Shown: positions 5,845 to 59,329, counted from the stretch's first letter. The stretch: 59,329 nt of DNA from Nemertoderma westbladi (GCA_032718475.1 JAUCBJ010006589.1:1-59329), one strand, 5' to 3'. A program made the numbers and translations. The notes: a model not told the origin generated them from the letters alone.

Positions 5845-6052
5845 ACATATATTTTAATCTACAAACTACATCCATTTTAATATACAAGCTACATCTATTT
5901 TAATCTACAAGCTGCATCTATTTTAATCTACAAGCTATATCTATTTTAATCTACAAGTTGCATCTATTTTAATCTACAAGCTGCATCTATTTTAATCTAC
6001 AAGCTGCATCTATTTTAATCCACAAGCTACATATATTTTAATCTACAAACTA
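5845..6052. repeat. 23-bp minisatellite
   Basis: About 9 copies of atctattttaatctacaagctgc. Confidence 0.9.
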
Positions 6053-9850: not shown

Positions 9851-10174
9851 AACTCTAAAAAATGATTGGTGAAAAATGGCTGGGGTGTCGACAGGGAGAA
9901 GTAGGGACCGTGTTGCTTAACCCCTTAGAGCCTATGACGTCCAGTGCATGTCACCATGGACAACACTAAGACATGCAGTGGACGTCATGCTGCAATATGC
10001 TGCAATACATGTTTCATTGGAAGGCTCTTGGTCTAGGTATACTGGTGGATAGTATTAAAGACATTTAGTGCTCTTCATGGAAAAAAATCCATTCTGTACT
10101 GTAGATAGGCTGTATTGTAGACTGTAGTATTAGTGTTAGGTATATGGCGTAATGCCAACCACAGTACAGTAGTA

Positions 10175-10720: not shown

Positions 10721-10831
10721 GCGACACGTTTTAATTATTAACCATATTTCGTAAGATATATTTCATCATCGTTTCTGCACGGTATTTCACATAGCGCCCC
10801 ATTTGGTGATCTCCAGTGAATGTTTGGATTT

Positions 10832-16251: not shown

Positions 16252-16800
16252 GTTAGATTATGAAAACAATAAAATACAGTAGCCTATTTAGCTGAGCAAC
16301 TTTCTAAATCATAAACTATTGGTAGATATTATGTCTTCGAAATCCGAACATCCTCGGACAGGGGGTGGGTGGGTTGGCTAAATTGGGACGTCCGATTTTT
16401 CGATTTTTTAGGATTTATAGTTTTAACATAATAAAATTCACAATACTATACAGTTGGAGTCTGGAATACATAATTCGATTAGTTTGTTAACATAAGGTAT
16501 TAAGTTGAGGCATATCTTCATTGTTTTACATTTGTGGTTACTGTGGTTTTTTTCAGATTTCGCACTAACAGCATTATCGCAATTTGAAAAAAAGTTAGGT
16601 GGAACCTTGTCTCAATTTTAGCATTATTTTACGGAATGGTGCAAATTAATAAAATATATGGTTAGGACATTATCGTACCATTTTTGGTTTTTTATCCTGC
16701 TATTCATTATCGGTATAATTTTATCAGTGAAAGTGGTCCGTGAAACTTTCCCAGGGAAAATGGGGCTTATGTTATTACTGTTACCTTGCAACATTTTTAG

Positions 16801-18905: not shown

Positions 18906-18931
18906 TAATCAATAAATAAGTCATAATACAG

Positions 18932-20447: not shown

Positions 20448-20877
20448 GTAATGGAATTTTAATAATTAGATGAAACTGTTCGTTCCGTCTTGTTTCTTAT
20501 ATTTGTTGTGTTTTTAATAAACCCTAAATCATGTTCCTGATCTGCTTCGATTGTACCATCGCTTCTTACTGAACTACTTGTAATTGTTTCTGACTATTGT
20601 CTTGTTTTACTGCTGTTTGTGATAATAATTGTTTTGTTCCGAATAATTAATTGTTTGTCCGAATAATTACCGCATAATCTAATAATTGCACAATATTTCT
20701 TCCCGATTGCGTGTTATCATACAGTAATTGCTCTATTGTTATGTGAGTATTGACATCTGATGTCTCTAAATATTGCACTGCTCAAAAACTAAACGTGCTT
20801 CAATTTAAATATTATTGTTATCAGAGTGCCTGTTTACACAATTCAACATGTTGATTCAACATTTTACCTTTTACCTT

Positions 20878-26058: not shown

Positions 26059-26257
26059 TATTTGTAATTAGGGCTCATATAAACAATCAACAGATACGCA
26101 AGTAAATACGAAATTCAATTCAAGCAGTTAAATGCAAATTAAATGTAATAATTAATAAACAAATCTATATCTATTGGGGATTTGAGGTTTTACTGTAGTT
26201 TGCGATTCTGTGTTTGTGAAATGGTTTTCAATATGATTATAATAATGATCCATAATC

Positions 26258-28229: not shown

Positions 28230-30050
28230 GTGGAAAATAGTCGTAACAAACTTGGTGCAGCTTCATGCTATTGGAACTTGGCAATAGAACAAAGACTTTT
28301 GGTCTAATATTAAAAAACAAACCAATTACAAATCTACAGCCGCGCCTACAGTAAGTGGTGCATGTAATGATGACGATATTGCAAATCTTTTTAAGGGCAA
28401 ATATAACAAAATTTTCAACTCTGTTTCGGCGAATAGCGAAGACATTAATTATGATAATAATTGCTTTAGTTCGTGGGATGGCACGTCCAAACTACATATT
28501 TCAGTAAATGAAGTTAAAACTGCAATAGCAGGACTTAAACCAGGCAAGGCCCCAGGGCCTGATAATATTTATCCAGAAAGTTATATCTATGGTAATAATC
28601 GTTTAGCTGTAATTCTCACATTGTTGTTTGATAGTTTTGTGTCACATGGATACTTACCCGATTCATTTATATCCTCTTGTATTTCGCCTATTGTAAAGGA
28701 CAAAAATAGTAGCATTAGTGATGACTCTAACTATAGGCCCATCACTAAGGCTACCATTTGTTCCAAAATTTTTGAGTCTTGTATAATTTCGTGTATTATT
28801 AATTGTGCTAAAATAGCGGACAATCAGTTCGGGTTTCAGAAACATTTAGGAACAGACTTGTGTATATTTACTTTAAAAGAAACTATCCAGCTTTATATTA
28901 GTCGGGACTCTCCAGTATACTGTGCATTCTTAGACGCCTCGAAAGCGTTTGATAGAGTAAATCATTTTAAACTATTTCGTAAAATGCTCGATGTAAACAT
29001 ACCAATTTGTATTGTTCGTATTACTGCCTATTGGTACAGTATGCAGTCCGTCACTGTGTGCTGGGGTGCAGCGGTCTCATCATATTTTTCTGTGTCAAAT
29101 GGTGTTAGACAGGGTAGCTTATTATCGCCCATGCTGTTCAATATTTATGTTAATGACCTCAGCCTGGAGCTTAACAAAATTAATGTGGGCTGTAGGCTGG
29201 GAAGTATCCTTTTAAATCATTTATTTTATGCAGACGATATATGTTTACTTTCCCCTAGTATTTTTGGTTTGAGAGCTCTCTTAAAAATCTGTGAACTGTA
29301 TGGCATTAAATTTGATATTTCTTACAACCCAACTAAGTCTAAATGTTTATATTTTCTACCTAGGAAATTTGGACGTGCAGGTGATGTATATCTCAATGGT
29401 AAAATATTATCTTGTGTCAAGGAGGTGAAATATCTTGGCCATCTCATTAGTTGTGATTTTTCAGATGAATCGGACATTATGCTAATGAGACGTAATCTGT
29501 ACTGTCGTGGCAACCAGCTGGCAAGAAATTTTTCAGTTTGTTCACATCCGGTAAAGCGTCAGTTATTTCAGAGTTTTTGCTACAGTATATACTGCTGTGC
29601 TTTATGGTCTGTATTTACAGTAGAATGCCTGCGGAAATTAAAGGTTGCTTACAATTGCGGTTTCCGTTTATTATTCAATTATTCCCGTACTGAGGATGCC
29701 GATACTATTTTCGTGGCAAATAGAGTTAACAATTTTAAAGCTATTTTACGTTCAAACATTTACTCGCTATATCGCCGTGTACATAATTCTACTAATTCTA
29801 TAATTGAAGCATGTTACTCAACTTGTAAAAATTATTCTATATTAATTGACCGATGGGTGTTACTGTTAGGTAATTCAATCGCGTCCGCTTGAGGATTAAT
29901 ATTTATTTACCACGTTGTGTTTGTGATTACATAAATATAAGATGTAAAGTAATCAATAATTGTGCTATTATGTAGGTAGTCATATATATATATATATATA
30001 TGGGCCATGGCCCGGTTTAATAAATGAAATAAATAAATAAATAAATAAAT
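28230..30050 (+). mobile_element. 5'-truncated LINE (RTE-X-like) with open RT frame (ORF 28621-29892, extending upstream)
   Basis: GKAPGPDNI, NYRPIT, NQFGFQ, FLDASKAFDRV, GVRQGSLLSP, YADD, KYLG, and an (AAAT)n tail ending near 30050. Confidence 0.9.
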
Positions 30051-35057: not shown

Positions 35058-36305
35058 TGTTCGCGCTTTCAGACCTTTGGCAGTTTAACCCACCAAATTA
35101 AGATGTCTTCTAGATATTAAATCTGTTTTTAGTCTATGACAAGTATTTGATTCACTACACTAGTCGAAACCAATCCGTGCGCGACCATTCACCCGCTGGA
35201 TATTCCCGGGAGATTGGGTTCGACGGTTTAATTTTATTGCTATGTAAGCCTAATGTATTATTCGACTGACAGTACTATATAATCTCTGACAATATTATTC
35301 ACCTTCGGTAATATTAACAGTTCCTTTAGGACGTGGCGCTTTATCTATATAAACAGAGTTATGACTTAAACTACTCACAACGATATGGCTTAATTATAAT
35401 TCACATATATGGCGCATTCTTTAGGAATTGCTTCTTTAACAGACTCACTCATACACAATGCTGCACAATACTGCACACTAATCTGCCAATCTTCACTGAT
35501 TTTAGTCACATATAAAAGGAACACAGGCTGACTCATGTAGGGTCTATCAAATAACATTAGATTCACTTCAAACCACTTTAACATAAGTCACAATCGTTAT
35601 TGGTAACCTTTCTCTCTTACCTTCGGTATATCAAGAATATTGGGTTTCGGGGTTATTTATCGTTATTCCAAATATAATAATGCATCAACCATATTATGAA
35701 GAACTGACAGTAAATAGCAGTATAAAACAACAACTGAACACTGATTGTTACGAGTTTGCAATGTTTCAGCAGTCAGGATGTATGATCAGTTAGCAGTCCG
35801 CAGTAGTCGTTGGGGCCGCAGGTCAGTTAAAGGATATATGCCCTTTATAATTAAACCTACTAGTGTAAGACTAAAAAACAGTAAAGCACAAAATACTTCC
35901 AAGCCGTTCTTTCTTAGGCTCAGGACTGAATGTAAACACTGCACATAGGCATTGCGTCATTTCTCGGAAATTTTCTGTACAAGGAGCCACAAAAACGCTC
36001 TAATTGGCTGACTGAACTGAGAGACGCCGTAGAACAAAGGAAATCAACACGTATGAATGTCAGCTGTTAACCGTAGTCATAGTAACTACTGTTCAAGAGT
36101 AGCTATCACCCCTTTGCGTCACGAATTGCCATAGAATCATAAAATATGCCTTTCACAGTACACATACGGAGGAAATAGGTCTTAGATCCTCTAAAAACAC
36201 CGATACAGCAATAATACGGTCTCTTACACTTATTAAATCAACTACAGAGTATTTTAATGTAAAAGATAATAAAAATAACGGGGCAATTCAGCAAAGGCTT
36301 TTACA
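35058..36305 (-). repeat. 3' LTR (1248 bp)
   Basis: Highly similar to 49746-50988. Confidence 0.95.
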
Positions 36306-37163
36306 CCGCTCCCAGAAAATGGGATTTTCAGTCTATAAAATATAAAAATCACAGTTTCTAAAACATAAAGATACTCTAAACAGTTAGTCTTTCTTACGCA
36401 GACGGCGTTTACGCAGTTTTTTGAGGCTAGCAAGAGTCTTTTTCTCTTTGGGGGGAGCCACTTTACTAGGAGGGCCATAACTCCTGGGTGAAGGGTGCAA
36501 TATGATTGCATCAGAAGGTGTAGGATTGTGGTCGAGGTATCTGCCGTTTCGATATGCTTCTCCTCGAGCTGATTTTCCTCCGCTCGTAGCTGGATACGTT
36601 CATCCAAAAACTCTCGCAGAGAATAGGATCGTCCAAGTTCGATAACTTCTTAGAGATTCTGGATTTCCCAATCGAATTGAGATAAGGCCAATTCGTTTAT
36701 CGATTGGACTCACTGTTATAACTTACGTTTATCTGAACAAACGCAGGTTTCCCTTTTGATCTTTATAAAATAGCGTTTAACTCGTTTCGTACAACGCTCT
36801 CCTTCACCTTGATGAGGGGTTGTATCGCGTTAAACGTGGACGACCATACGGTTGGATAGTGATATTAGGTGTCCGCGTCACAATCCGGCTAGGTAAGATG
36901 GGCGGCTAGCTAGAAATCACTGTCGGAGTGTTACCGATTAATTGTTAGGGTAGCACTAGATCTTTGAACAGTGAATACAGTCCGCGAGGATCCGCGACAC
37001 CACCAAGATCGCAGGTCTGAGGTCCAACTAAGGAATGAGGAGGTTTGACCGAGTATTCCGGGATTCTGATCGTAGGTTTACTCCAGGATCGTTCGAGCCG
37101 AGTGAGCATAGGTGATACTTCAACAAGTTTCGGTTTACGTGGATGTTTATGTTTTTCCGTTTA

Positions 37164-39503: not shown

Positions 39504-42500
39504 TTAAGTTGGGGAGTCCCTAGATGTCGGTTGGATTAGGGAAGTGGTCGTGGGAAGAGTTTCTTGCCTTCCATAGTTTCCGGAGAGCTCTCTGTCTCTT
39601 TCCAGTAAACATAAACGTCCCACTGGGCGATTGAGCTGTTGAGTCTCAAAGACTATCCCTGGTTTCTTAAAGTTCCGCCGCATGACGACGAGCTCTACTG
39701 ATCGCACCAAACCATCGCTCGAGATATAAGTCTCGATGATACGTCCTGTTTGCCATCGCTTACGTGGGAGATCGGGGTCCACAATAAGCACCATGTCTCC
39801 AGCGCTGACGTTTTCTTGCTGCGCAAACCACTTAGTTCGAAGTTGTAGAGTGGGCAGGTAATGTTTCTCAAAATGGTCAGCGAAACGACGGGATAGCAAC
39901 TGCATAAGTTGCCAGGTTCGACGGCAGTACTCGTCTCCGTCTGTGATCTCCGATTGCGGGAGCATGGCTACAGGTTTCTTCAGTAGAAAGTGCGCGGGTG
40001 TTAGCGCTTCCAGGGAATCAGGATTTGAAGAGACTGGCATAAGCGGTCTTTCGTTGAGATAGGCGGCGATTTCCTCCATTAACGTCCGCAATAGTTCGTC
40101 GGTGAGATAAGCGCGACAAGGCACGATGAAGTGGAACGCAGTCTTCACGCTCCTAATCAATCTCTCCCAACTTCCTCCCCACCAAGGGGCGTCGGCGGCG
40201 TTGAAGGTCCAGCTAGACGCTGTTATCCTTAGCTGATCGTCCACCTGTCTTTTATTCCAGTCCTTTACGTAAGCTTGAATTTCGTTGTTGGCGCCAATGA
40301 AGTTCGTTCCCTTATCCGATCTCATCGTGTTACTGGTTCCGAAGCGAGCGATCTGTCGTCGTAAACTCAACACGAAGCTGTTGGTGGATAGATCGTTTAC
40401 CATATCGAGATGGATAGCTCTACAAGTCATACAAACGAAGATGACACACCATCTCTTGACTATAGTCCGGGCACGATATACTTCAATAGGGCCAAATAAA
40501 TCCACACCGGTATTAGTAAAGGGTGGTTCATAGAAGCTTACTCTTTCCCTAGGTAATTCTGCCTCTCGCTGTGTTAAAGGCCTACTGAATGCTTTCCTAC
40601 AGGGTATGCAGTTCCTAAGAACTTGGTTCAGAGCCCTACGGGGTTTATAAAAATAGTAGCGAGTTCGGATTTCGCTCAGAACCCGCTCTCTACCGGCATG
40701 GTACAGTTTGCTATGAACATCTACAATCATCTTGATTTGTATATCAAGATTTCTAATGAGTATGGGAAACTTAGTGTCAAAGGATAACGGGGCGTTGGTG
40801 AGCCGACCTCCAACACGTATTAACCCATCTATCATGGTACTAGAGAAGCGATCCCTTAAGCGCATCTGTGGATTTCTTAACAACAGGAAATACTTATCGG
40901 AATCCTCATAGCATTGTAGGAGTCTCAGCATCTGTTTGTTGGTTTCATCATGCTCCTGGTAGCTGATCTTCTCCTTTAGAAACCTGTGGGGTACCTTATA
41001 TTGGGGAAGATCTTTAACAACATGGACTCGTGCAGATGTTGATGGAGCATCATCACTATTGGTCTTTGTTCCGGAGTAACGATGATGAAAACATCGTTTC
41101 AAATAGGTGACGGCCTTACAGAGCCGATTCCAGGAACTGTAGTGACGTATGGCTCTCTGCAAGAGAGGTGAGAGTCCTTGCGAGATATCTGGTATTCCAG
41201 ATTTCCAATCCTTGTCACGGATTTCCAAGACTTCTTTCGTCGTGGCGGTGGGTTTCTGATCCAAAGCATCATCTCCGGAAGTAAATAATACAGATAGATC
41301 AACCGCAGGTTTAAACAACTTCGATTTACTCGCTCGAGTTTTGGGTTTAACTTTCTCCGCTCCCTTGGCCTGTCTGATCTCTGCTGTTGTGAGATGGGGT
41401 GGCCATTCTTCTTCTTCTCGGTAGAGAAAGTCGGGTCCACCTAACCATTCGGGAGTATTTACCAATTCCTTTGGAGTCGCTCCTCGGGACGCGATGTCCG
41501 CTGGATTAATCGTTCCGGGGCAATGTCTCCATTGGTCCATCGTCGTGCGACTAAGTATGATGGCTACTCTGTTGGTAACGAAGACGCTGAACTGACAGAC
41601 TTCATTGGTTATATACTCTAACACGAGTAAAGCGTCGGTCCAATATACAGTTTTCTCTAATGTATAGTCAATCTGTTCGGTTACATTCCGGCCGATGGCT
41701 GTAGCGTATAGAGCCGCTTTCAACTCCGCTCGAGGAACTTTCAACTTGTTGTTGATTAATGCCTTAGAAGTAACCAAGGCGACTTTGATTCCATCCGGAG
41801 TTTCCACTCTTAGGTAGGCTACTATACCGATTCCCATATCGCTGGCGTCTCCAAACACATGGAGTTGATAGGAATACGTAGGGAGAACATGACCAAAATA
41901 TGAACGGGAAATTATAAACTCCTCGATCGCTGGTAGAGAATCTTCCCATTTCATCCACTGCTTCAGTAATTCCCCCTTAAGTGGATCGTCCCATGAGTGG
42001 TTTTCAAGCCACATTTGTTGTACTAAACTACGAGCAATCAATATAACTGGGCTAATAAATCCCAATGGATCGAAATAGGTGCTCAGTATACTTAAGCAAA
42101 TCCGTTTGGTTCGAACTGGATTATCTCGCTGCTTTAGTTGGAAAAACAGGATATCTCTCTCTGTGTCCCATTTCAAGCCGAGTGTCTTGGTTTCTGGCAG
42201 ATCATCTTTGATCAAATCGAGATCTTTCGCTCCGCGATCTTCCGCAGGAATCGACTCCAGAAACTCACGGGAGTTGCTGGTGAATTTTGTTAATCGAAAA
42301 CCACCTCTTTTTAAGCACTCTACCGTTCCCTTAGCGACCTCAATGGCTTCTTCAACTGATGGGAGGGACTTCAGATTGTCGTCCATGTATATGTCTTTCT
42401 TGATATTGTCGATTACTTCCTTAGAGAATGCCTCTCGATTGTCCTCTGCAGTAGTACGCACGACCGAACAGGCGTTGGAAGGGCTTGAGATTATCCCAAA

Positions 42501-45218
42501 GGCCTGGATGGTCATCCAGTACTCCACCGGTTTCTGGTTGAGGTCTCCTTCGGGCCACCATAGAAATCGTAAGCTATCTCGATCCCTATCCAACACTTTG
42601 ACTTGCAAGAACATGCCTTCTATATCAGAGGCGAAAGCAATCGAATATTGTCTAAGTCTTAAAAGAATTCCCAACAAAGATTGAAGTAAGTTGGGTCCGG
42701 GTAACAATTCAGAGTTAAGGGATTGACCCATGTAAAGAGCGGAGCCATCAAAAACTACTCTCACTTCGTGGGGTTTACCGGGTTTAGGAACGTAATGGTG
42801 AGTTAAATAATACGTTCTTTCAGTCACAGGTGTTTCTTCCGGTACTCTCTCCGCGTATCCCTTATTGATAAATTTTTCTAGCTGTGTTTGATACATGGCT
42901 TTCGCTGAAGAATTAACCGTAAGGCGTCGATGGAGTTGTGCGATTCTTTTTTCCGCCAGGGGTCTGTTATTGATGAACTTCGGTTCTTTCTTGCGGAAAG
43001 GTAAACCGACTTCATACCTACCTTGATCTTTGAGGAAACATGTAGTTGTCTCTTGGATCTGCTTGGCCCTTTCCTCTTCTACAGACAAGGCTTTATCGTA
43101 GGAATTGGGCTCTACCGCCTCTTGCATAAAGAATCGTACGGCATGTTCATCCCGAATCTTGGCATTATGACGCTCAATGACGTCATTTAACTCGTCGTTA
43201 TAAGCTTCTCGTTCAGATGGATAGAGAAGTTGACATAAGTTAACTTGATTTTGCCAAGCATCGTTTTCCTTAAGGAGATCGATGGTATTCTCCTCATCAA
43301 AAAGCTGGTGAACATCGTCGTTATCTGAGGAGTATGGAGTTCCCTCAGTTGAATCGTCTCCCTCACTAGCATCATCTTCCCATTCACTCACCTTGTAGAC
43401 TCTCTCTTGCGGTAGTCTTTCTCTGAGTGTTCTACGGGAAGGGCCAGTAAAGTACCAACCTACTCTAGTTCTTACCGCATAGGTCTGTAGGGGCTGCGGT
43501 TGAGCAGGCCGTTTCTCTAACGTCTCCAGCGCCTCATGCGCGTTTTGGCCGATGAGTATTTGCACTCCAGGATAATCAGTCTGAAATCGAGGTATGTTAA
43601 GATGTTGGATGCTCTCATCCTCGTCCCAATTATAAAGGTCTGCTTGAGTAGTAGCGAAGTTCTTTATAGCCACCATTTTCACTAACCTTATGCTGTGTTC
43701 TCCTAGTTCGTCCTGGGGGGTGGACAACGCTCCAACATAATAATCAGCTGTTATTGTAGATTTCCAAACTTGCATAATGCCTGACATGTTGAGCTTAGTT
43801 TGAAACTTGGGTTGTCCAGCAAATATATCTTCGGCTAACTCTTTATCGATAAATGTTCCTGTGCTGCCGGAGTCCAGGAGGGCGTTCACTACATAACTCC
43901 TCTTAGGTCCGTGAACCCTTACCTGTACCACAGGAAACTCTCGGATCCCTACATTGGAGGATGTCTCTTTCCAAGGTGGTTGTCGTTCAGAAGTAGTTAG
44001 AGTAAAGTCGTTCTCTGTATCTTTCTCATATGTTAGTGCTCGATACACTGCGGTATTTATCATGTAACAGGATTCGTTTTCGTCAGAGAACTCGTCTGTA
44101 TAGAATCCTTCCATCTCAGATTGATCAGTGTCGTTCACATCACTGAATTGGACATGTAGCTCGGAATCACTTACCTGATTCGGACTATTTCGATCGAATT
44201 CAGCGTGCAACAAGATATGATGTTTCGCACCACACTTTGCACACCTTATGTCAGAGAAACAGGTTCGCCGTTGGTGTCCTTGTCTGAGGCAATTATAACA
44301 TAACCGCTTATCCCACATAACTTCGCGTCTCTCCGTTAATGATTTCTTTAGAAATTCATCACACCTATTCAAATAGTGGGTCCCGTCACACAGCGCACAT
44401 TTTGGTTTGATGTTACTTACCTTATTCTGAGTCACATTGTGTACACTTGCCTTTTCTTCGGGCTTTCTCACCTGAATTCTCTTGGGAGACGTGGGAGGAG
44501 TTTTTCTTGCTTGTTCTCTCCTGTCATTTGTTCGAGACTTGAATTTACTTACCTGATCTTTAGGCATTTTATTCACGTAATAAGATCTATCCGTGTCCTT
44601 CCCGCTATCTTCTCCTTGAGAAGTCTGGCTTTCGCCGTCATCGGTATAACATACTGGTGTTATTTTTCTCCTAGAGACGGGTTTTTCGCTTACCTTGTTT
44701 TCCGGTGTTTTCTCCCTAGACAGTTTCAGGAGCTGTAATTTCACTTCTCCATCTAGGAATGACATGAGATCAGCCATGGTAGGGTCTCTCCGTTGTTGTT
44801 CCATCATATATAACACTTTCTTATCCCAGCGTGTACCTACTCCACCCTTAGGTAAAGTAGAAGCCACTGCTCTAATAACCATAGTGTTCTGATACTCATG
44901 AGACTTACCTAGCCAATCTAATTGTCTGCAGATCTCCTGGATCTCATCGGAAAACTCGATAATTCCGCTACTAATAAACTTTCGGGGCGCTACTAACTTG
45001 GCATACAAGTACCCAGCGATATTATTCCTATTACCATACCTGATGTTTAGTGTATCCCAAACTTGTCTTAATCCGTCTGGATGTCCAATAAACTTTAACG
45101 CCATTAACTTGGGAGATCCTTCCAAGCACTCGATGAGGTATCTAAGTTTTTCTCCATTAGATAGTACAGAGTTCTGTATGTTATCTTTGTAATATTCATT
45201 AAAAGGTAACCATTTCAT
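39504..45218 (-). CDS. BEL/Pao Gag(C-term)-Pol polyprotein
   Basis: Three Cys/His knuckles, protease LLDSGS, RT YMDD, RNase H HVFGDAS, integrase HHCC, GVDLFGP, SDKGTNF, WERLI. Confidence 0.95.
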   Translation of the reverse strand: MKWLPFNEYYKDNIQNSVLSNGEKLRYLIECLEGSPKLMALKFIGHPDGLRQVWDTLNIRYGNRNNIAGYLYAKLVAPRKFISSGIIEFSDEIQEICRQLDWLGKSHEYQNTMVIRAVASTLPKGGVGTRWDKKVLYMMEQQRRDPTMADLMSFLDGEVKLQLLKLSREKTPENKVSEKPVSRRKITPVCYTDDGESQTSQGEDSGKDTDRSYYVNKMPKDQVSKFKSRTNDRREQARKTPPTSPKRIQVRKPEEKASVHNVTQNKVSNIKPKCALCDGTHYLNRCDEFLKKSLTERREVMWDKRLCYNCLRQGHQRRTCFSDIRCAKCGAKHHILLHAEFDRNSPNQVSDSELHVQFSDVNDTDQSEMEGFYTDEFSDENESCYMINTAVYRALTYEKDTENDFTLTTSERQPPWKETSSNVGIREFPVVQVRVHGPKRSYVVNALLDSGSTGTFIDKELAEDIFAGQPKFQTKLNMSGIMQVWKSTITADYYVGALSTPQDELGEHSIRLVKMVAIKNFATTQADLYNWDEDESIQHLNIPRFQTDYPGVQILIGQNAHEALETLEKRPAQPQPLQTYAVRTRVGWYFTGPSRRTLRERLPQERVYKVSEWEDDASEGDDSTEGTPYSSDNDDVHQLFDEENTIDLLKENDAWQNQVNLCQLLYPSEREAYNDELNDVIERHNAKIRDEHAVRFFMQEAVEPNSYDKALSVEEERAKQIQETTTCFLKDQGRYEVGLPFRKKEPKFINNRPLAEKRIAQLHRRLTVNSSAKAMYQTQLEKFINKGYAERVPEETPVTERTYYLTHHYVPKPGKPHEVRVVFDGSALYMGQSLNSELLPGPNLLQSLLGILLRLRQYSIAFASDIEGMFLQVKVLDRDRDSLRFLWWPEGDLNQKPVEYWMTIQAFGIISSPSNACSVVRTTAEDNREAFSKEVIDNIKKDIYMDDNLKSLPSVEEAIEVAKGTVECLKRGGFRLTKFTSNSREFLESIPAEDRGAKDLDLIKDDLPETKTLGLKWDTERDILFFQLKQRDNPVRTKRICLSILSTYFDPLGFISPVILIARSLVQQMWLENHSWDDPLKGELLKQWMKWEDSLPAIEEFIISRSYFGHVLPTYSYQLHVFGDASDMGIGIVAYLRVETPDGIKVALVTSKALINNKLKVPRAELKAALYATAIGRNVTEQIDYTLEKTVYWTDALLVLEYITNEVCQFSVFVTNRVAIILSRTTMDQWRHCPGTINPADIASRGATPKELVNTPEWLGGPDFLYREEEEWPPHLTTAEIRQAKGAEKVKPKTRASKSKLFKPAVDLSVLFTSGDDALDQKPTATTKEVLEIRDKDWKSGIPDISQGLSPLLQRAIRHYSSWNRLCKAVTYLKRCFHHRYSGTKTNSDDAPSTSARVHVVKDLPQYKVPHRFLKEKISYQEHDETNKQMLRLLQCYEDSDKYFLLLRNPQMRLRDRFSSTMIDGLIRVGGRLTNAPLSFDTKFPILIRNLDIQIKMIVDVHSKLYHAGRERVLSEIRTRYYFYKPRRALNQVLRNCIPCRKAFSRPLTQREAELPRERVSFYEPPFTNTGVDLFGPIEVYRARTIVKRWCVIFVCMTCRAIHLDMVNDLSTNSFVLSLRRQIARFGTSNTMRSDKGTNFIGANNEIQAYVKDWNKRQVDDQLRITASSWTFNAADAPWWGGSWERLIRSVKTAFHFIVPCRAYLTDELLRTLMEEIAAYLNERPLMPVSSNPDSLEALTPAHFLLKKPVAMLPQSEITDGDEYCRRTWQLMQLLSRRFADHFEKHYLPTLQLRTKWFAQQENVSAGDMVLIVDPDLPRKRWQTGRIIETYISSDGLVRSVELVVMRRNFKKPGIVFETQQLNRPVGRLCLLERDRELSGNYGRQETLPTTTSLIQPTSRDSPT

Positions 45219-45355
45219 CTCATCTCCATTGAACTTGACGATCTCTCCAACCTTTTACAGCTTGCCGGGCTTCGGTTCTAGCCATTTGACGCGTAAAACT
45301 TTCTTGGGCCATCGTGCTATTTAATATCGAGTTATCGGTATATAAATTTCTCGGA

Positions 45356-49450: not shown

Positions 49451-49745
49451 CGTCTGTACTATCTGATCAGGCTTACACGCCTTCTGTTCAATACTGGCCT
49501 ACAAATAAATAAAACTTGACAGAAATAAGTAAACCATATAAAGGTATAAGGGGTGATCAATCCCTAATCCCCTAAACAGCCTACCGGTATACAACAATCA
49601 AATCGAATAATACTAGTGTACTTATACGGAAGTACCGGTTAGAACAGTTAGGCCTACTGACCTACAGGTGTACCGTTCAGGTTTACCGGTTGACCGGTAC
49701 TTTCAACTTTATTGCTTACTGCAACAAAGAAGCTATATCCTTTAA

Positions 49746-50988
49746 TGTTCGCGCTTTCAGACCTTTGGCAGTTTAACCCACCAAATTAAGATGTCTTCTA
49801 GATATTAAATCAGTTTTTAGTCTATGACAAGTATTAGATTCACTACACTAGTCGAAACCAATCCGTGCGCGACCATTCACCCGCTGGATATTCCCGGGAG
49901 ATTGGGTTCGACGGTTTAATTTTATTGCTATGTAAGCCTAATGTATTATTCGACTGACAGTATTATATAATCTCTGACAATATTATTCACCTTCGGGAAT
50001 ATTAACAGTTCCTTTAGGACGTGGCGCTTTATCTATATAAACAGAGTTATGACTTAAACTACTCACAACGATATGGCTTAATTATAATTCACATATATGG
50101 CGCATTCTTTAGGAATGCTTCTTTAACAGACTCACTCATACACAATGCTGCACAATACTGCACACTAATCTGCCGATCTTCACTGATTTTAGTCACATAT
50201 AAAAGGAACACAGACTGACTCATGTAGGGTCTATCAAATAACATTAGATTCACTTCAAACCACTTTAACATAAGTCACAATCGTTTATCTGTAACCTTTC
50301 TCTCTTACCTTCGGTATATCAAGAATATTGGGTGTCGGGGTTATTTCTCATTATTCCAATATAATAATTCATCAACAAATATAATGAATAACCGACAACA
50401 AATAGCAGTATAAAACAACAACTGAACACTGATTGTTATGAGTTTGCAATGTTTCAGCAGTCAGTATGTATGATCAGTTAGCAGTGATTCCATGAGTCAG
50501 GTAGTCGTTAGTTAAAGGATATATGCCCTTTATAATTAAACCTACTAGTGTAAGACTAAAAACAGTAAAGCACAAAATACTTCCAAGCCGTTCTTTCTTT
50601 GGCTCAGGACTGAATGTAAAAACTGCACATAGGCATTGCGTCATTTCTCGGAAATTTTCTGTACAAGGAGCCACAAAACGCTCTAATTGGCTGACTGAAC
50701 TGAGAGACGCCGTAGAACAAAGGAAATCAACACGTATGAATGTCAGCTGTTAACCGTAGTCATAGTAACTACTGTTCAAGAGTAGCTATCACCCCTTTGC
50801 GTCACGAATTGCCATAGAATCATAAAATATGCCTTTCACAGTACACATACGGAGGAAATAGGTCTTAGATCCTCTAAAAACACCGATACAGCAATAATAC
50901 GGTCTCTTACACTTATTAAATCAACTACAGAGTATTTTAATGTAAAAGATAATAAAAATAACGGGGCAATTCAGCAAAGGCTTTTACA
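49746..50988 (-). repeat. 5' LTR (1243 bp)
   Basis: Highly similar to 35058-36305. Confidence 0.95.
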
Positions 50989-51105
50989 CCTACACCGTGT
51001 GCGTCACCAGTACATCCAACGGGAGTACCGGATGCCGTAGTACGAGGCGACGGCAGGACCGAGGACTTTCTAACTGTTCCGCAACCTAGATATAAGGAAT
51101 CGGAC

Positions 51106-54100
51106 ATGATAAGTTCAGCAGGAAGTCAGGAAAGCGTTGTTAGAAGCGTCGGAGGCTATATGGCGCATATTACCAGGAGTATTGGAGAAGGCCAACGCAT
51201 ATTAGACGAGTTGACCGCTCCGATGTCTCGGTTCGAGTTCTACACTCTACAGGTGAGAGTACAAAGTAGAGTACATAAGTCCGTAGATAACCTAATTGGT
51301 CTACAAGATCTAGCTAGACAGAGACAGGACATGGATACTCAACTTAGAATCCTCGAGAAACTAATGATCGCTAGAGAGAAACTGATTCAGTTTAAGTCGA
51401 CGATTAGGCAGATACAACAGGAACAAGCGGACCAGTTGTTAGGTGAGTCAGTTTCGGACGAATTATTGCAACCCGAGGAAGAACAGGAACTGTACCGACT
51501 AGATGGACAATTGAAACATCTGACGGACCACTTGCGTATGTGCGGCGAAGACGTCGGCGATTTGGAAACCATGCCGGAATATACGAGGGAAACTTCACCC
51601 GTACGAATTGAATCGGCACCGGGAATACTGGACCAATCGTTAGTGAGTATTCGCAGCGAAATTGGCGAGATAAGTATAGTGACGTCAGAAATTTCCAGAC
51701 AGCAACAACAGCACGATGGACAACAACGGGAAGCTGAGGAACAAGCTCAACTGTTGACGGCACAAGCAGCCGTACAAGAAGAGAAACTACGCGTTGCGAA
51801 TGTTGTAAGAATCTCTCATCTGCAAGAACAAGCCGAGTTGGAAGCGGCTGAGATGGAAAGGTTGGAGCTAGAAATAGCACAGCGAACAGCGGCAGCTGAG
51901 TTAGCGCAACAAGCGGCAGCAGCTGAGTTAGAACGACAAGCAGCGGAGTCGGAGCGACGAGCAGCAGCAGCGGAACTAGAGCGACGAGCAGCAGCAGCGG
52001 AACTAGAGCGACGAGCAGCGGAGTTGGAAGAACACAAGCGAGTTTCGGAAGCAAGAGCTGAAATGAAAAAACGGCAAATAAAGGCTCAATCAGCGATAAG
52101 ACAAGCGGAGCTCGAGGCGCAACAACAACAGACGGAACAACGCGAGAAGGAAGTTAAACTTCATTTCGAACTCGGGAAGAAGGCGAGAGAATTAGCCGAC
52201 GCGAAGGAAGATCTGGATCTACAAGCCCGCGATCGATCGATGAGATCTCGAAATGGACACGATCTAGACCAGTTAGAGGTAAGGCACCGCCAAATCCAGG
52301 AACGAATGAAGGAAGGTTCGGTAGGGGCACCTGGACGAGAAAGACAATTAGTTAAAGACTTATGTCAAAGATTCCCTCAGGTAACTCCTATGTTTGCACC
52401 GATAATGACTAAGGAACCTGTTTCGATTGCGGGTAGTAGTGATATTTCTCCTATCCATGGTGCGACGGAACACAGGTTAGTTATTCCGGACAAATTCATC
52501 CCGTCGAGAGCAACGTCGTCGCCTATTCCGAAAGTCAAGGTAAGTAACCCACCGATTACAGATCGTAGTAGTTTATTAGTCGGACCTGCACTACTGACGA
52601 CAAAACAGGTGAGTCCACCTTTGACGCCAAAACCTGTTACACACTACGCTTACCCAATGACGTTTAGGCCAACAAGGCCTTTGGATTCAAACGCTGTCTT
52701 CCGACCACCAGTCCAGTTTACATTGCAATCTACGACTTCGAGGAAGACTTGTGAGCCTACCGAACAACGGAGACCAGTGGATACGCGACCGTTCAACCAG
52801 TTTACATCGCAATCTACGACTTCGAGGAAGACTTGTGAGCCTACCGAACAACGGAGACCAGTGGATACGCGACCGTTCAACCAGTTTACATCGCAATCTA
52901 CGACTTCGAGGAAGACTTGTGAGCCTACCGAACAACGGAGATCAGTGGATACGCGACCGTTCAACCAGTTTACATCGCAATCTACGACTTCGAGGAAGAC
53001 TTGTGAGCCTACCGAACAACGGAGACCAGTGGATACGCGACCGTTCAACCAGTTTACATCGCAATCTACGACTTCGAGGAAGACTTGTGAGCCTACCGAA
53101 CAACGGAGATCAGTGGATACGCGACCGTTCAACCAGTTTACATCGCAATCTACGACTTCGAGGAAGACTTGTGAGCCTACCGAACAACGGAGATCAGTGG
53201 ACGATGTTCCGAAACGAAACGTTAGAATTCGTACGACGCAACGGACGCGAGCACGTCGACACACTCGGTCTAAACACTGGCACACTTTTGTAGACTATAT
53301 CGAATCTCAGATCGCCGTGTGCGCCTTTACATCACGGGAGAAGTTTAATTACCTGCTTCAAACGTTGTCAGGAGAACCTAAACGTTTGGCGGAGACTTTC
53401 GTTGGTGTACCGGACGCCTTCGAACTAGCGTACGATCGTTTAACTTCGATATACGGAGGTACAGTCAGCATGGCCAGGTCAGTGATAGAGGAACTCTGTA
53501 AGGGAGGGGCTATCACTAAACGCGTCGACTTATTAAAACTGGCTGACGAGATATAGAACGCTATCACTACTTTAAGATCCATTGGACAACTTGACTACGG
53601 GAATACCCCTACAGTCCTATTAAAGATCATAGGACGACTCCACCATCGACTTCGTCGGGAGTGGAGAAAGATCGAATACCAGCGGGAAGAGCGGGGTGGA
53701 TTCTTAAAACTAGAGGATGTGTACCTTTTGATATCCAGGGAGGCAGTGGTAGAAACTCGATCCAACTACACTGACCAGCACATCGTGGCAGAAGGAATCA
53801 CCTTGCCATCCTCAAACCGACAAAAACCCCAGACAACATCCACTAAGACGGCCACTTACGCCACACCGACGGAATCACGACAATTCTCGGACGGTAGTAG
53901 GGTATCTGCGCCCATTGGGACAAAACAGACGAGACAGCAACTCAGTACCGACTTCAGCGGCTGCCAATACTGCGAGCATTTAGGCAAGCGGTATAGCGGT
54001 CACAAGTTGAGAGGTTGTCGACAGTTTCGCGAGTTAAACTCGGAAGAACGACGGCTGCAGATACGGCCATTGGACTCTTGTTGGCGGTGTACGCGACACG

Positions 54101-54447
54101 GACACGTCCGTAAAGATTGCCCAAATACCGACACTTGTCCATTCTGTGGACGCAACCACGACGGTCTGCTCCACACAGACAGCCACATGCCGACAAAACG
54201 CTTCGCTAGGGAACACCCGGAAGCAGCAGCGAAATGTAATGCGGCCTATAAGAATCGAGAATCGAAAACGACTCCAACCTTCGTGACCCATATTGAGGAT
54301 TGCTTCTCAGAACAATCCGGATCGTCGGACGAAGAGTCAGAAGACGACGACGTATATTCGGATGGAGATGAACAGCCATCGATCGCGCTTCTGACTACTG
54401 ACCAACTAAAGGGATTCAGTGTACCTAAAGAGGTGAGGTCTCTATAG
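51106..54447 (+). CDS. Gag of the second BEL element with one in-frame TAG (53554-53556)
   Basis: ORFs 51106-53556 and 53719-54447 share a frame. Motifs EKFNYLLQTLSGEP, CWRCTRHGHVRKDC, CPFCGRNHDGLLH. Confidence 0.85.
52714..53200 (+). repeat. 84-bp (28-aa) coding tandem repeat, about 6 copies
   Basis: QFTSQSTTSRKTCEPTEQRR[P/S]VDTRPFN units, near-identical. Confidence 0.95.
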
Positions 54448-55647
54448 GGGTGCGCTGAACAGGCGGCGGCGGACTCGTGAGGGTCTGGGGGCACGTTAAA
54501 TCAATCCTAAGTGCAAGGGAGATACTTAAGGCCCTCGTGTCTAACGAACCATGAATTGCCATGGTGCCGTGGTATCGCCTAGTCGGCCTGTTGCCGTACT
54601 GCCAGTCCTGTACACAGTAGGGGTGGTGGCATGGTGTGATTTGTGGCTCATGTGGCGTGGACTATGTTTTGTATGTGGGCGATCAGTGGCAGTTTGCTTG
54701 GGGCTTGGATGGTTCCATTGACCGTCAGCTGTTCCGTTTCTTTGATACTATATGTTATTGTCTCCATGTTCAGCTGATTGGTCTTTGGTGGCATTGGAAT
54801 AAACCGTCGGGTCTCGAGTTTTCTGTTGCTGTGGGTACGTGAGTACACGTGATTGTATGTGTGGCCACTGCGAGTGGGTATGGGAACCCTTACCAGTTGG
54901 ACAAGACGCCGCTGGTATTAGTAGGACCATACTTTACTGCACCCCAGCATACTTTGTGCACACACGTTATTTTACCCTGTCGGTAAAATAAAGTACTCTC
55001 GACTCTTTTCGAGTTTCAGTCGATACAATTTTGTCCCCTCTGATTTTGTCTTTCCCGATTTTGACCCCGATTTTGTCTTTACCCGATTATGTCCTCTGTG
55101 TGTGCATGGTATGTGTCAGATTTTGTGTTTACCGTAGTGTACTTGATTTCGTGAACATCTGTTGAGTACACGTGTACAGGACGGGTAAGTGGTTACTTGT
55201 TCCTAGCTTTCGAGCTAGTCAATATTGTTTGTGGAACTTACTTCCCCTCAATATTGCCGGCGAGGCAGGTGAAAACGTGTCAATATTCCATGTTGGGTAG
55301 CGCAAGCCCACATGGGACAAGACCGTCGGTTAGGCCCAAGGGCGACCTTGGTGCTCGATCGCTATCGACTGGTCCACCTGCCGGTTGACTCTTTGTTATA
55401 CTTTGAGTTGGCTCAATGTACAGTCAGGCCACAGTAAGTTGACAGTAGCCGCCCATCTGGCTACACGTTCGACGAGCTGTGCTGGTGTGATCGGGGGACC
55501 GAAAACAGAAACCGGGAAGCATCAGGCCACCCTCCGGCCCGGTCTGATAATAACATCTGTCGGACTGGCCCCAAGGGTGGTGGAAACACGTCCGCCTCGT
55601 GGGTGCGCCTCGGAGTTATCGGAGAGGAGCCCAAAAGGACGAAAGTG
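54435..55647 (+). ncRNA. Putative group I self-splicing intron / group I-like ribozyme between gag and protease
   Basis: P3 ggcaggtg 55264-55271 / cacctgcc 55375-55382; J3/4 aaa; P4 acg(t)gtc / gaccgt; P5 with GCAA loop; P6 cggtt/gatcg with GCGA-capped extension; J6/7 cta; P7 t(c)gactg 55365-55371 / cagtca 55421-55426; P8 ggttgactc/gagttggct; J8/7 caatgta. Removal restores the gag-pol frame. Confidence 0.75.
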
Positions 55648-55648
55648 A

Positions 55649-58600
55649 ATTCCGATTAAGATTACTGGCACAAAAGGGAGTAAGAGAATCTACGCTATCC
55701 TGGATTCAGCCTCATCTCACAGCTACGTGGACGAGCAGATAGCTGACGTAGTGACGGATCTCAGACACGGTAAGCGCATCAGCTATACCGTAAGTAGTAT
55801 GCACGGACAACGTGCAATACCAGTGACACGAGTTAAGTTAAACTTAGACTCTCTTCTTCCGAAATCGCAACACAGCGAAAGGGAGAGGTCTTTGTTACCC
55901 TTCAAGGATTTGACTTTTGCGGCCACCAAAGACTTTAGTAACCTACTAGGTCCGGTCCCAGAACAATCCTTGGAGGACCGTAAGTATTTCAGACACCTTG
56001 GTGTACCTGAATGTCCTGTTAATTATAGGTCGGTAGCCATGCTGATCGGGACGGACCAATTCAACCTACATCAAGTGTGGGAAACCAGACCATCGGCAGT
56101 CGTAGCGGTAAACGCATACGCCTGTAGAACGCCGATAGGGTGGTATACTCGAGCGCCTGTGCGCACACTGGACATAAGTGACGAGGAAGACGATGTACAA
56201 AGTACATGTAGTTTATTAACTACAAATTCAATTCATTCCTTTTCACACGACGTGGACCATACTACCTTACATACAAAACATGACAGACGTGTAACTAGTA
56301 TGATAAGTCACAAGGAGCAGCTAATCCACCAGGTGAGTTTAGAACTTGGGGAGAAGACGAGTCAGCTAGAGATTCCATCGACGACAGATGATAACGCCGG
56401 AAGGCTTGCGAGTCTACCTACCCCAATAACCTCAACAATGCCCGTCGATATTGATGATGACGCGTTGAGAAATCATCAATTGGAACAAGCTGTATTGGAC
56501 AAAGAATTAACGGAGAAGACTATCAGGTGGTTAGAACAAGATACAGCTGAACCTGGTAGCTACGAACCATGTATGTCGGAACAAGAGAAACAATCTTTGA
56601 GGATCATGGAAGATACTATCCGCCAGACGAAAGACGGACATTATGAGGTGGGGATGTTATGGCGTAGCCAAAGTCCTAAACTTATAAATAACTACCCACT
56701 AGCTTTAGGACGTCTACACTCAATACGACAACGTCTATTAAAGGACGAGAAAGCCCATCTGCAGTACAACACTCAGATGGAGACGTATTTGACTAAGGGA
56801 TACGCTATCCGAATGACTAACCCAGAGATAGTGACTAACCAGACATACTACCTGCCACATCACTATGTGAGACACCCCGACAAACCAGATAAAGTACGCG
56901 TAGTCAATGACTGTGCGGCTCTGTTTGAGGGAATGTCCCTCAATAGCGAGTTGATGGATGGACCAAACATGAATAATTATCTTATGGGGGTGATTATGCG
57001 CTTCCGTCAGCGTCAAGTAGCTTTTACTTGTGACGTTGAAGCTATGTTTCACCAAGTGAGAGCGTTAGAGCAAGACAAAGACAGTTTGAGGTTCCTCTGG
57101 TATCCGGAAGGAGACTTAAGTCTACCACCGGCGATTTACCAAATGCAAGTTCGCGTTTTCGGTGCCAGGGACAGCCCAAACTGTACCATGTATGCCCTAA
57201 AACAAGCCGCTAGGGATCAGAAACTCCTGTATGACCCAGAGATAATTAGGATTGTGGAACGTGACTTTTACGTCGACGACGGATTACAGAGTTGCGACAC
57301 AGTAGAACGTGCTACAACAGTAGCACATCAATTACGGGACTGCTTAGCGGGCGGAGGTTTTAACCTCACCAAATTCGCCTCAAACAGTGCCGAATTAGTA
57401 GACTCATTCGGAACGACTGAGCGTGGAGGTGGTGACATAGACCTAGAGTTCGAACCACTACCGACGACCAAGGTGTTGGGGCTCTTTTGGGACCCAAACA
57501 CGGACAACTTTCGAGTGAAAGTGAGACTGGACAGTCAAGAAAACACACTGACAAAGAGATCATGCTTGTCAAAATTGAGCCGATTGTTCGATCCATTAGG
57601 ATTCATCAGTCCAATTATACTGCAAGCCCGCATTTATATGCGCAGTATTTGGAAGGATGGACTGACATGGGACGAGCCGATCTCATCAGACCAAGTGGAC
57701 TTATGGAAGACCTGGGAGGCAGAATTATCTTCGCTAGAGGATTATTACATACCCAGAGTCTACTTTCCATTACAAACTACATTTCCTGACAACTTGGAAT
57801 TACATTGTTTTTCCGACGCTAGTGACAACGGTTTTGGTGTGGCAGCGTACTTGCGCAGACAAGTAGACTCAGAAGAATTCGATGTTTCGCTCATTACTTC
57901 TAAGGCAAAAACAATGCCTACTAAGTATATGACGACACCACGAGCTGAGCTACAAGCCGCAACCCTGTCAACCACCATCGTGAACCTCATACAGACAGAA
58001 CTACAGTCAAGTTTACAGATATTTTATTGGACTGACGCGACGTTGGTTTTATTTTACATAAATAACGACACACTTGAATTCAAGACATTCGTAGCTAACC
58101 GTCGCGCAGAAATTCTAGACCGTTCAATAAAAGAGGATTGGCGACATTGTCCCGGACCACAAAACCCAGCTGATATTGCGTCGCGAGGAATGATGCCTGA
58201 GGAATTCTGTAAACCGGAAAACAAAGAATTTTGGCAACACGGACCCTCATTCTTGCAGAAATCGATACAACATTGGCCTCCGTTATACGACAACAAATCT
58301 AACACCATCCCTAAGGACGCCGAAATCAAGAAACCAAAAAAGGGGAAGGCAAAGAAAAGGACGACGGCGGCAAAACTCAAGAAAAAACCGAAGGCGAAAT
58401 GGAAAGATATAACTTCAAAGGTCAAGAGAGGAAGACTTGCGAGCCTTTCTACACCAGACATATCACCAGACAGTCAACCAGACACGTTACTAGACGGTCA
58501 ACCAGACATTTTGCCAGACATGTCACAAAATGTTCTACCAGACACTAGTAACATACTGACAAATAGTAAAGCCGCAGTTTCCCTATTGGAGCGGCCTTCT

Positions 58601-59329
58601 GTTGACAAACAACCAGATACGTTACCAGACGTATCGCCAGACACATTACTAGACAGTCGACTAGACATTTTGTCAGAAACATCACAAAATGTTCTACCGG
58701 ACATTAGTAATGTATCGACTAACAGTAAAGCCGCAGTTTCCCTATTGGAGCGGCCTTGTATTGACAAACTACCAATTTTGACACACTTGAGCAACCATAA
58801 GCACGGTGAAACCTCATGTATTACAGATGTGGGTAGTACCTACGCTAATGTAAATACAGGTGTTACTCTGCGCTCAAGAGACATACCAAACTCGCAACCT
58901 ATGGTGAGACCTGGGATTAATATCGGCAGAAAAATAAGTTTACCGAAACCCAGTGACCCCATAGAGTTCAAACCACCATTAACGATCGACTTACAAAGTA
59001 CTGACAACCAGGATGAGAAGACGAAGAAGGACAAATTACTTGTAGACCCGGACGGATCAACAGTCAACAAGGGAATACTTACCGGCGGACCCGTGGGCCC
59101 TTCTAGTAATTCAAAACCTTCCAAATTCTTTGACTTACCTGATGACGTCACAAATACTTACGTCGACCGTATTGTAAACCTAACAGACTCTTGGTCAAAT
59201 GCTTGCCGAAAATTAGCGTGGATTGTACGTTTTGTACAATACGTTAAAGGCAAACGAGACTTTACACGTCGACTTACATTGGCTGAGATTGACAGGTGTG
59301 AGATTAAATTAATTCGCCATTACCAACTG
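55649..59329 (+). CDS. Pol (protease-RT-RNase H, continuing beyond the window) of the second BEL element
   Basis: IPIKITGTKGSKRIYAILDSAS, YYLPHH, DVEAMFHQV, DFYVDD, FDPLGFISP, HCFSDAS. It is absent from the ORF track, consistent with no stop before the window end. No ATG precedes the protease active site. Confidence 0.88.
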   Translation, partial: MPIKITGTKGSKRIYAILDSASSHSYVDEQIADVVTDLRHGKRISYTVSSMHGQRAIPVTRVKLNLDSLLPKSQHSERERSLLPFKDLTFAATKDFSNLLGPVPEQSLEDRKYFRHLGVPECPVNYRSVAMLIGTDQFNLHQVWETRPSAVVAVNAYACRTPIGWYTRAPVRTLDISDEEDDVQSTCSLLTTNSIHSFSHDVDHTTLHTKHDRRVTSMISHKEQLIHQVSLELGEKTSQLEIPSTTDDNAGRLASLPTPITSTMPVDIDDDALRNHQLEQAVLDKELTEKTIRWLEQDTAEPGSYEPCMSEQEKQSLRIMEDTIRQTKDGHYEVGMLWRSQSPKLINNYPLALGRLHSIRQRLLKDEKAHLQYNTQMETYLTKGYAIRMTNPEIVTNQTYYLPHHYVRHPDKPDKVRVVNDCAALFEGMSLNSELMDGPNMNNYLMGVIMRFRQRQVAFTCDVEAMFHQVRALEQDKDSLRFLWYPEGDLSLPPAIYQMQVRVFGARDSPNCTMYALKQAARDQKLLYDPEIIRIVERDFYVDDGLQSCDTVERATTVAHQLRDCLAGGGFNLTKFASNSAELVDSFGTTERGGGDIDLEFEPLPTTKVLGLFWDPNTDNFRVKVRLDSQENTLTKRSCLSKLSRLFDPLGFISPIILQARIYMRSIWKDGLTWDEPISSDQVDLWKTWEAELSSLEDYYIPRVYFPLQTTFPDNLELHCFSDASDNGFGVAAYLRRQVDSEEFDVSLITSKAKTMPTKYMTTPRAELQAATLSTTIVNLIQTELQSSLQIFYWTDATLVLFYINNDTLEFKTFVANRRAEILDRSIKEDWRHCPGPQNPADIASRGMMPEEFCKPENKEFWQHGPSFLQKSIQHWPPLYDNKSNTIPKDAEIKKPKKGKAKKRTTAAKLKKKPKAKWKDITSKVKRGRLASLSTPDISPDSQPDTLLDGQPDILPDMSQNVLPDTSNILTNSKAAVSLLERPSVDKQPDTLPDVSPDTLLDSRLDILSETSQNVLPDISNVSTNSKAAVSLLERPCIDKLPILTHLSNHKHGETSCITDVGSTYANVNTGVTLRSRDIPNSQPMVRPGINIGRKISLPKPSDPIEFKPPLTIDLQSTDNQDEKTKKDKLLVDPDGSTVNKGILTGGPVGPSSNSKPSKFFDLPDDVTNTYVDRIVNLTDSWSNACRKLAWIVRFVQYVKGKRDFTRRLTLAEIDRCEIKLIRHYQL

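Follow-up and report, generated by a model that had tools for sequence, protein, structure and literature searches.

The insert that separates gag from the protease in a BEL/Pao LTR retrotransposon is probably a group I intron of a giant-virus family that self-splices incompletely, and thereby apportions the output of the element between Gag and Gag-Pol. It occupies 1225 nt (54423..55647, on the plus strand, as are all features below unless stated; positions are those of the window, the whole stretch of 59,329 nucleotides that was analyzed). It ends in a terminal G, and its longest stop-free frame in a six-frame check is 104 codons. The initial annotation had called it a group I intron, and this is supported by a U...G joint in four of four sequencing runs, by a covarying family of viral relatives, and by a 102-bit match to a covariance model.

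The host element is BEL/Pao (Belpaoviridae), as had also been proposed, based on the DUF1759 domain of its gag (E 2e-6) and its Pao-type pol (Peptidase_A17, E 3e-42). Belpaoviridae are a metazoan family according to the ICTV (PMC8742986). Its gag, the 5' exon (50962..54422), comprises frames 50962-53556 and 53557-54447, the window copy being broken by one in-frame stop at 53554-53556, and the exon ends at U54422. On unspliced RNA gag is closed by the stop codon at 54445..54447, the end of frame 53557-54447, eight codons from the break codon. The 3' exon (55648..59329) carries the protease, reverse transcriptase and RNase H regions of pol. Its frame (55649-59329) runs for 1227 codons without a stop up to the end of the window, which closes inside pol. 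The catalytic aspartate of the protease is codon 19 of this frame and the first AUG is codon 51; the whole protease therefore requires the joint. The best 120 of 271 longer pol relatives were BEL/Pao-type polyproteins with 31-47% identity, and those that are named were animal, nearly all with PF05380. The gag-protease junction of the neighbouring BEL element is uninterrupted, as the initial annotation stated: frame 39504-45254 is continuous from the gag DUF1759 domain through the protease motif, and gag-pol forms one continuous frame both in this neighbour and in most relatives.

Upstream, the start of gag is abutted by an LTR that was read as belonging to this neighbour. The neighbouring BEL element lies on the minus strand between LTRs that are 96% identical (35058-36306 and 49746-50989), and no target-site duplication was found for it. 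The 12 bases at its primer-site position (49734-49745) do not look like a tRNA complement, and they pair with 12 bases in its own LTR (about 50512-50523, minus strand), a self-priming signature. Within the gag of the interrupted element there is an in-frame 84-bp tandem repeat (52713-53201) with copies about 99% identical. At 16731-20473 and 28288-29892, a tandem array of 33-bp units lies in a frame that adjoins a tyrosine-recombinase-like frame with a weak Phage_integrase match, after which comes a separate reverse transcriptase frame; these are possibly further mobile elements. Long unbroken host frames at 1696-2958, 6798-8306 and 24760-26067 correspond to a Core-2/I-branching enzyme and two MFS transporters. 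Among the best 120 of 221 relatives of the Core-2/I-branching enzyme gene (1696-2958), at about 33-45% identity, all those named are animal. From the named pol and enzyme relatives and the metazoan range of the family, the host is very probably an animal, and it looks like a divergent animal lineage.

The boundaries of the insert were obtained by comparing contigs of four sequencing runs (X1, X2, X4 and X6) over 53300-57000. X1, X2 and X4 are DNA of one organism from three studies, one of which may be the source of the window. X6 carries another organism label and is only guessed to be RNA, so that its joint is not taken as evidence of splicing. In all four runs, 54422 is joined to 55648 (depth 440, 499, 741 and 5.8; 1, 1, 2 and 2 contigs; 27, 27, 37 and 110 letters on the shorter side, respectively). 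The joint skips 1225 bases with ends AC...TG and one ambiguous base, and the reading frame is preserved across it. U54422 is the last base of the 5' exon and G55647 the last of the intron. The U54422.G54452 pair and the terminal G55647 are the splice-site signature of group I introns, and they count in favor of an intron, standing at a junction that was set by contigs and not by folding. No target-site duplication was found at the insert, with only one base shared at the joint in the contigs, and the insert has neither GT-AG nor TG...CA ends and no second copy within the window. It does not therefore qualify as a spliceosomal intron, a solo LTR or a transposon insert.

The 3' end that had been predicted from the sequence, G55647, coincides with the contig joint. 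The predicted 5' end does not. The insert had been said to start at 54435, with 5' splice sites after U54434 or U54443, whereas the actual start is 54423, so that the 5' end had been misplaced by 12 to 21 bases. Both discarded sites are in frame but absent from the contigs, and their exon-side P1 scores 12 as compared to 17. With X placed at the break, a protein profile gave 26.0, 24.6, and 24.5 bits for the three 5' sites and could not tell them apart.

The catalytic core P3-P4-P5-P6-P7-P8 spans 55264..55426, with a predicted guanosine site at G55367-C55425, and was recovered by descriptor, by covariation and by a covariance model. The core helices listed in the initial annotation are present in canonical order. 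P3 is a pseudoknot of eight Watson-Crick pairs (55264-71/55375-82), P4 has one bulged U (55275-81/55321-26), P6 is in the core register (55327-30/55358-61), P7 has a bulged C55366 beside the G55367-C55425 pair (55365-71/55421-26), and P8 contains four G-U pairs (55383-91/55405-13). They are connected by J3/4 (AAA), an A-rich J4/5, J5/4 (CAA) and J8/7 (55414-20). The lengths of J3/4, J5/4 and J6/7 (three bases each) and of J8/7 (seven) are the same as in the RF00028 consensus. A first core descriptor, which tolerated too few G-U pairs for P8, overlooked the real core and returned one chance match on the minus strand of the window; it was replaced by a score. On this score the insert reached 77, and none of 2000 dinucleotide shuffles was as high (maximum 70; 362 with any arrangement), a figure that leans towards the hit since the descriptor had been loosened after the first miss.

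Searches with Rfam Intron_gpI and GIR1, which had been named at the outset as a check, gave no match in 53500-56500, which includes the insert, at E up to 10, the gathering score of RF00028 being 50 bits. The core alone gave two chance matches only, and the whole window had no group I match at gathering score. RF00028 does not match the insert because the letters of its core differ enough. GIR1 lariat-capping ribozymes have a short J8/7 and a twin-ribozyme layout. This identity was rejected, as there was no Rfam match, a single core in the window, and a J8/7 of 7 nt.

Relatives of the core were found in viral contigs. A P7 and J8/7 pattern matched 23 loci in IMG/VR, 20 of which share the whole core, and a P4 pattern matched 75; together the two patterns gave 53 distinct related cores, from 97 matches with five misses. 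The alignment contained the window and 43 of the 53 viral cores, leaving aside five near-duplicates and five with long inserts between P7 and P3. In this alignment 97.5% of 1452 cells pair, and 19 of 33 pairs change on both sides (7/8 in P3, 3/6 in P7, and 5/6 in P8). Slid controls pair at 26-51%, and none of 500 shuffles reached any of these measures, a count that is not a probability because the rows are related. The P7 G-C guanosine site is invariant in 44 of 44 rows. The bulge of P7 varies together with the first pair of this helix, being A when the pair is C-G (28 cases) or G-C (3), and C when it is U-A (16, the window among them) or A-U (7). Covariation in P3, P4, and P7 had been put forward as a check on the fold. 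Among the viral relatives it was found for P3 and P7, and also for P8, but P4 and part of P6 provide no evidence, their invariance being a result of their use as the search pattern.

A covariance model (R1) was built from 39 viral cores with the window left out. It matched the window at 55258-55426 with 102.2 bits (E 1.2e-22), the next best match having 14.7 bits. It also detected 11 of 11 held-out family loci at 43-112 bits, and none of 80 prokaryote loci or five other loci. The likeness to the viral introns reaches beyond the core. The 5' peripheral domain (P2 region, 54458..54600) is homologous to that of the viral introns, with BLAST matches in 30 loci, the best 15 of which are 77-83% identical over 42-48 nt at 54540-54591. 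The P9 region (55427..55647), which ends in G55647, carries a block common to the viral introns near 55485-55525. These results show the structure, boundaries, and kinship of the insert.

The genes that contain the nearest relatives of the insert, all in viral contigs, encode capsid protein, RNA polymerase and DNA polymerase B. Pfam scans, which covered 50 of 96 flanking viral frames, gave domains of the giant-virus capsid (12), of RNA polymerase (13) and of DNA polymerase B (6), and in several loci the profile resumes across the viral insert (e.g., Rpb2_6 from 230 to 233, Rpb1_5 from 85 to 87). Some neighbouring viral frames have LAGLIDADG or GIY-YIG domains. Rfam detected none of 20 family loci. 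Among 14 longer viral loci, two members were weakly matched by RF00028 (33.6 and 25 bits, in one locus), beside three canonical introns at 91-109 bits. Some viral loci (L050, L063, L026, L053, L097) contain family members in tandem or next to canonical RF00028 introns. Rfam thus misses a whole intron family of 53 distinct cores, and further cases may have escaped notice for this reason.

In a tree of 51 rows with midpoint root, the window falls inside a supported set of 22 (96/88), and it is at most 67% identical to any row. Being rooted at its midpoint, this tree gives no direction of transfer. The core was not found in prokaryote genomes (0 of 120 pattern loci, 47 of 64 parts scanned), nor was there a match in a phage collection. 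No intron-bearing relatives of the retroelement were found in viral contigs. A metagenome search for relatives of the element yielded one distant 1.3-kb locus, and the protease query gave three weak matches. The gag query returned no intron-bearing relatives, and none of 152 viral loci encoded a pol or gag relative.

P1 (54415..54459) is a 12-pair stem of 54415-26 with 54448-59 (-19.1 kcal/mol) that places U54422.G54452 at the 5' splice site, with 54447-54459 as the internal guide strand. The P1 hairpin drawn in the initial annotation (54424-54448) does exist, but only as the apical part of this longer helix. Among shuffles, 128 of 10000 equalled the exon side of P1 when scored, and 260 of 5000 did so when pairs were counted. 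In the viral relatives the guide strand directly precedes a common anchor, present in 33 of 57 distinct loci, and the same anchor returns the same register, U54422.G54452, in the window. A U.G helix with at least five Watson-Crick pairs was found in 18 of the 33 anchored viral loci and none in 14, a tally that lacks a chance control and in which one or two calls look spurious. In seven viral genes searched for boundaries without bias, U...G joins with a good P1 did not stand out, the best of them ranking from 1 to 25 among 3540-11970.

Several viral relatives (L025, L029, L033, L042, L060, L078, L081, L084) have a C-rich strand at the guide position, and no U.G helix was found in them. In L025 and L033 the C-rich guide complements a purine-rich exon end, and this sequence complementarity suggests a non-canonical 5' splice site. 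Another relative, L027, is located close to the beginning of a frame that was taken on visual inspection for a capsid N-terminus but has no Pfam match. It shares seven junction letters with the window site (54415-54422/55648-55656), a possible hint of target similarity.

A P10 candidate pairs 55649-53 with 54447-51 (five pairs, weak, -4.6 kcal/mol), and folding of 55427-55660 revealed no clear P9.0. The guide octamer 54448-55 recurs without change at 55601-08, where it can pair with the 5' splice site at -13.2 kcal/mol, as compared to -19.1 kcal/mol for P1, and 55610-17 pairs with the start of the 3' exon at -9.8 kcal/mol. On these predicted energies, the pairings of 55601-55617 could be an anti-splicing fold. 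One contig of X4 appears to be without part of 55601-55617.

A long, extendable stem of 54605-15 with 55172-82 (-26.3 kcal/mol; region 54601..55187) loops out a U-rich insertion of 556 nt. Neither a homolog of this insertion nor an endonuclease remnant was found, and there was no translated match against 152 viral loci. Its folding z is -2.3, and that of 55190-55660 is -4.9. Peripheral hairpins of the GNRA or UUCG type, four of which had been described, were found at 54471, 55203, 55336 and 55580.

Intron-bearing and intron-less DNA copies of the element coexist in the reads, and the element, which has many copies, is deeply covered over all 30 bins in the DNA runs of the three studies. Single intron-bearing contigs reached a depth of 5500 in X1 and 7000 in X2, compared to 440 and 499 for the joined form, and in X4 the two forms were about equal (975 and 741); since depth is not copy number, these comparisons are only a rough guide. 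The contigs at the joint differ from the window copy by about 7-15%, and may therefore be a separate or older subfamily and not spliced products. Such divergence would fit a lineage that may never have held the intron. The joint fixes the boundary of the insert but is no proof of splicing.

Changes among the host copies are unevenly placed. Of 12 indels listed, beyond which there are 59 more, 11 fall in the intron (eight in the U-rich loop, two in the P8 loop and one in the long stem), and none in P3, P4, P6, or P7. The U-rich loop also has a deletion joint of 116-120 nt. Only two of 40 listed substitutions (354 more lie beyond these) are in the intron, none of them in the core, and 27 of the 34 listed in gag are at third codon positions. 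The bulged P4 base is apparently absent in three X2 contigs, and is absent in all 43 viral rows. In X6, the core piece differs at 4 of 153 letters and the 5' periphery at 20 of 207, the latter suggesting that the intron is old enough for the argument from drift in pol made below.

In group I splicing, a guanosine bound at P7 attacks the 5' splice site, and the freed exon end then attacks the 3' site. This chemistry is established, as reviewed in PMC3679873. In the insert, the guanosine would be bound at G55367-C55425 and attack after U54422, and the 5' exon thus released would then attack after G55647, joining gag to pol. Unspliced RNA would be translated up to the stop at 54445-47 to give Gag and would also serve as the genome for copying, and Gag-Pol would come from spliced RNA. 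Reverse transcription would be expected to eliminate an intron that is spliced out. Its persistence would be explained by splicing slow or partial enough to leave full-length RNA for packaging, so that the intron is inherited. Partial splicing would in this way set the Gag to Gag-Pol ratio, which is done elsewhere by frameshifting or spliceosomal splicing. The source of the intron would be a large DNA virus, probably through reverse splicing into the RNA of the element and copying by the element's own reverse transcriptase.

Two observations lead us to infer splicing. The intron is common in the DNA runs and there is no AUG before the aspartate; therefore splicing is probably the route to Gag-Pol. 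In addition, pol is stop-free despite drift, which suggests that the intron splices, if only partly. Neutral drift of 2.5-5% would be expected to leave about 3-6 stops in this frame, with a chance of none of 0.039-0.001, while at 1% drift a stop-free pol would not be remarkable (0.28 for no stop).

Chief among the rivals is an active selfish passenger kept by re-invasion, which we consider unlikely. Such an intron would splice efficiently and play no part in the balance of Gag and Pol. It would be kept by reverse splicing of the excised RNA into intronless RNA of the element and copying by the element's reverse transcriptase, or by packaging of the precursor before splicing. Intronless copies are indeed present as DNA, no switch is needed where gag-pol is continuous, as in the neighbouring BEL element and most relatives, and reverse splicing followed by reverse transcription is one mobility route proposed in the review (PMC3679873). 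The insert also has no endonuclease frame, but in X1 and X2 the depth of intron DNA is apparently ten times that of the joined form or more, which is hard to reconcile with efficient splicing in an intron that lacks an endonuclease. Moreover, the loose ends listed show no second insertion site, the share running into unlike sequence being zero in X1 and X2, and the actual site lies exactly at the boundary between structural and enzymatic regions with an early stop, which suits a Gag-only product.

Less likely is a dead ribozyme, an explanation we hold to be improbable. Intron-bearing copies would then make Gag only and be mobilised in trans by the intronless subfamily, whose DNA copies could supply Pol. 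The window copy, with its extra P4 base and its gag stop, and the swelling of the intron by the 556-nt U-rich insertion would suit decay of this kind. Against it, the core is intact when compared to the family model, the differences in X6 are concentrated in the 5' periphery (20/207) and not in the core (4/153), the listed indels spare the core helices, and pol is stop-free over 1227 codons. Finally, the insert might be ordinary inserted DNA (a solo LTR, a small transposon or a fragment captured from a virus) or a chimera of the assembly, and resemble a ribozyme by chance. The lack of an Rfam match could be cited in favor of this reading, which is very improbable and already largely refuted by the joint, the covariation and the model match (E 1e-22). 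Target-site duplication, TG...CA ends and a second copy within the window are all absent, the insert ends on U and G with a matching P1, and coverage extends over all 30 bins in the three DNA runs, each from a different study.

Incomplete self-splicing of a giant-virus-type intron is therefore the reading that we prefer. In its most complete form, to which we would give roughly even chances, an animal LTR retrotransposon may have acquired a group I ribozyme of giant-virus origin and domesticated it into an active self-splicing switch between Gag and Gag-Pol, possibly tuned by decoys at 55601-55617 that sequester both splice sites. The switch would be retained because the unspliced RNA serves both to make Gag and as the genome that is packaged. 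If true, a group I intron multiplied together with a retrotransposon of an animal would break the limits drawn in the accounts available, to rDNA for nuclear introns and, for animals, almost wholly to mitochondria of early-branching groups (PMC3679873, PMC10964413, PMC8393795), and a ribozyme-based means of balancing Gag and Pol would be added to those in use. It would also make testable why group I ribozymes are absent from nuclear protein-coding genes, suggest that animal genomes can obtain ribozymes from giant DNA viruses, and represent a natural case of intron gain via reverse splicing and reverse transcription.

According to one review, all known nuclear group I introns interrupt rRNA genes (PMC3679873). 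In animals, the cited accounts place group I introns in mitochondria of sponges, cnidarians and placozoans, plus putative cases in shark nuclear rDNA spacers (PMC10964413, PMC8393795), and a beetle rDNA record is also listed with a putative group I intron (PMC11782384). The distribution given in the initial annotation (rDNA of fungi, algae and protists, and animal mitochondria) needs the addition of putative introns in shark rDNA spacers and beetle rDNA (PMC8393795, PMC11782384), and of those in giant and polinton-like viruses. No group I intron in an LTR retrotransposon was found in the open literature; subscription journals lie largely outside of it, and supplementary tables of giant-virus introns could hold family members. 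The ribozyme is of a known kind, and its host and likely job are new.

The closest known systems are the introns of giant viruses. Those described in the capsid gene of Faustovirus E12 (PMC6247863) and in the RNA polymerase genes of Bodo saltans virus (PMC5871332) also have a group I fold, a protein-coding host gene and ends other than GT-AG. According to the Faustovirus report, seven capsid introns were missed by Rfam and have mostly AA/TG ends (PMC6247863), to be compared with AC...TG in the window. When compared with these descriptions, the insert differs in that it carries no homing endonuclease and resides in a chromosomal LTR retrotransposon that is copied through RNA, so that splicing threatens its own inheritance. 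Mirusvirus introns, in contrast, are reported to be spliceosomal (PMC12768974). Nuclear rDNA introns of the Tetrahymena type (RF00028) have, as reviewed, the same order of P1-P9, P1 guide, P7 G-C site and terminal G (PMC3679873). They lie in rRNA genes, whereas the insert lies in a protein-coding retroelement gene and its core letters are beyond detection by RF00028.

Group I ribozymes have also been associated with other mobile elements. IStrons, as described in PMC13521648, likewise combine a group I ribozyme and a mobile element, but they are DNA transposons in which the intron removes the whole element from the host mRNA. Polinton-like viruses of protists are reported to have group I introns (PMC12220804), but these are in DNA elements and detected by Rfam, and their host is not an animal retroelement. 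The proposed function, on the other hand, resembles that of splicing in other LTR retrotransposons. In Ty1/copia elements of Arabidopsis (PMC5580714) and in BARE1, copia and Ogre (PMC3735527), splicing near the gag/protease boundary is described as adjusting structural versus catalytic protein. According to the same reports, unspliced RNA is the template for copying (PMC5580714, PMC3735527), as we propose for the element in the window. As far as these accounts go, the introns of BARE1 and of the Arabidopsis elements are spliceosomal and their spliced RNA yields Gag, whereas in the element described here a ribozyme would perform the splicing and the spliced RNA would yield Gag-Pol.
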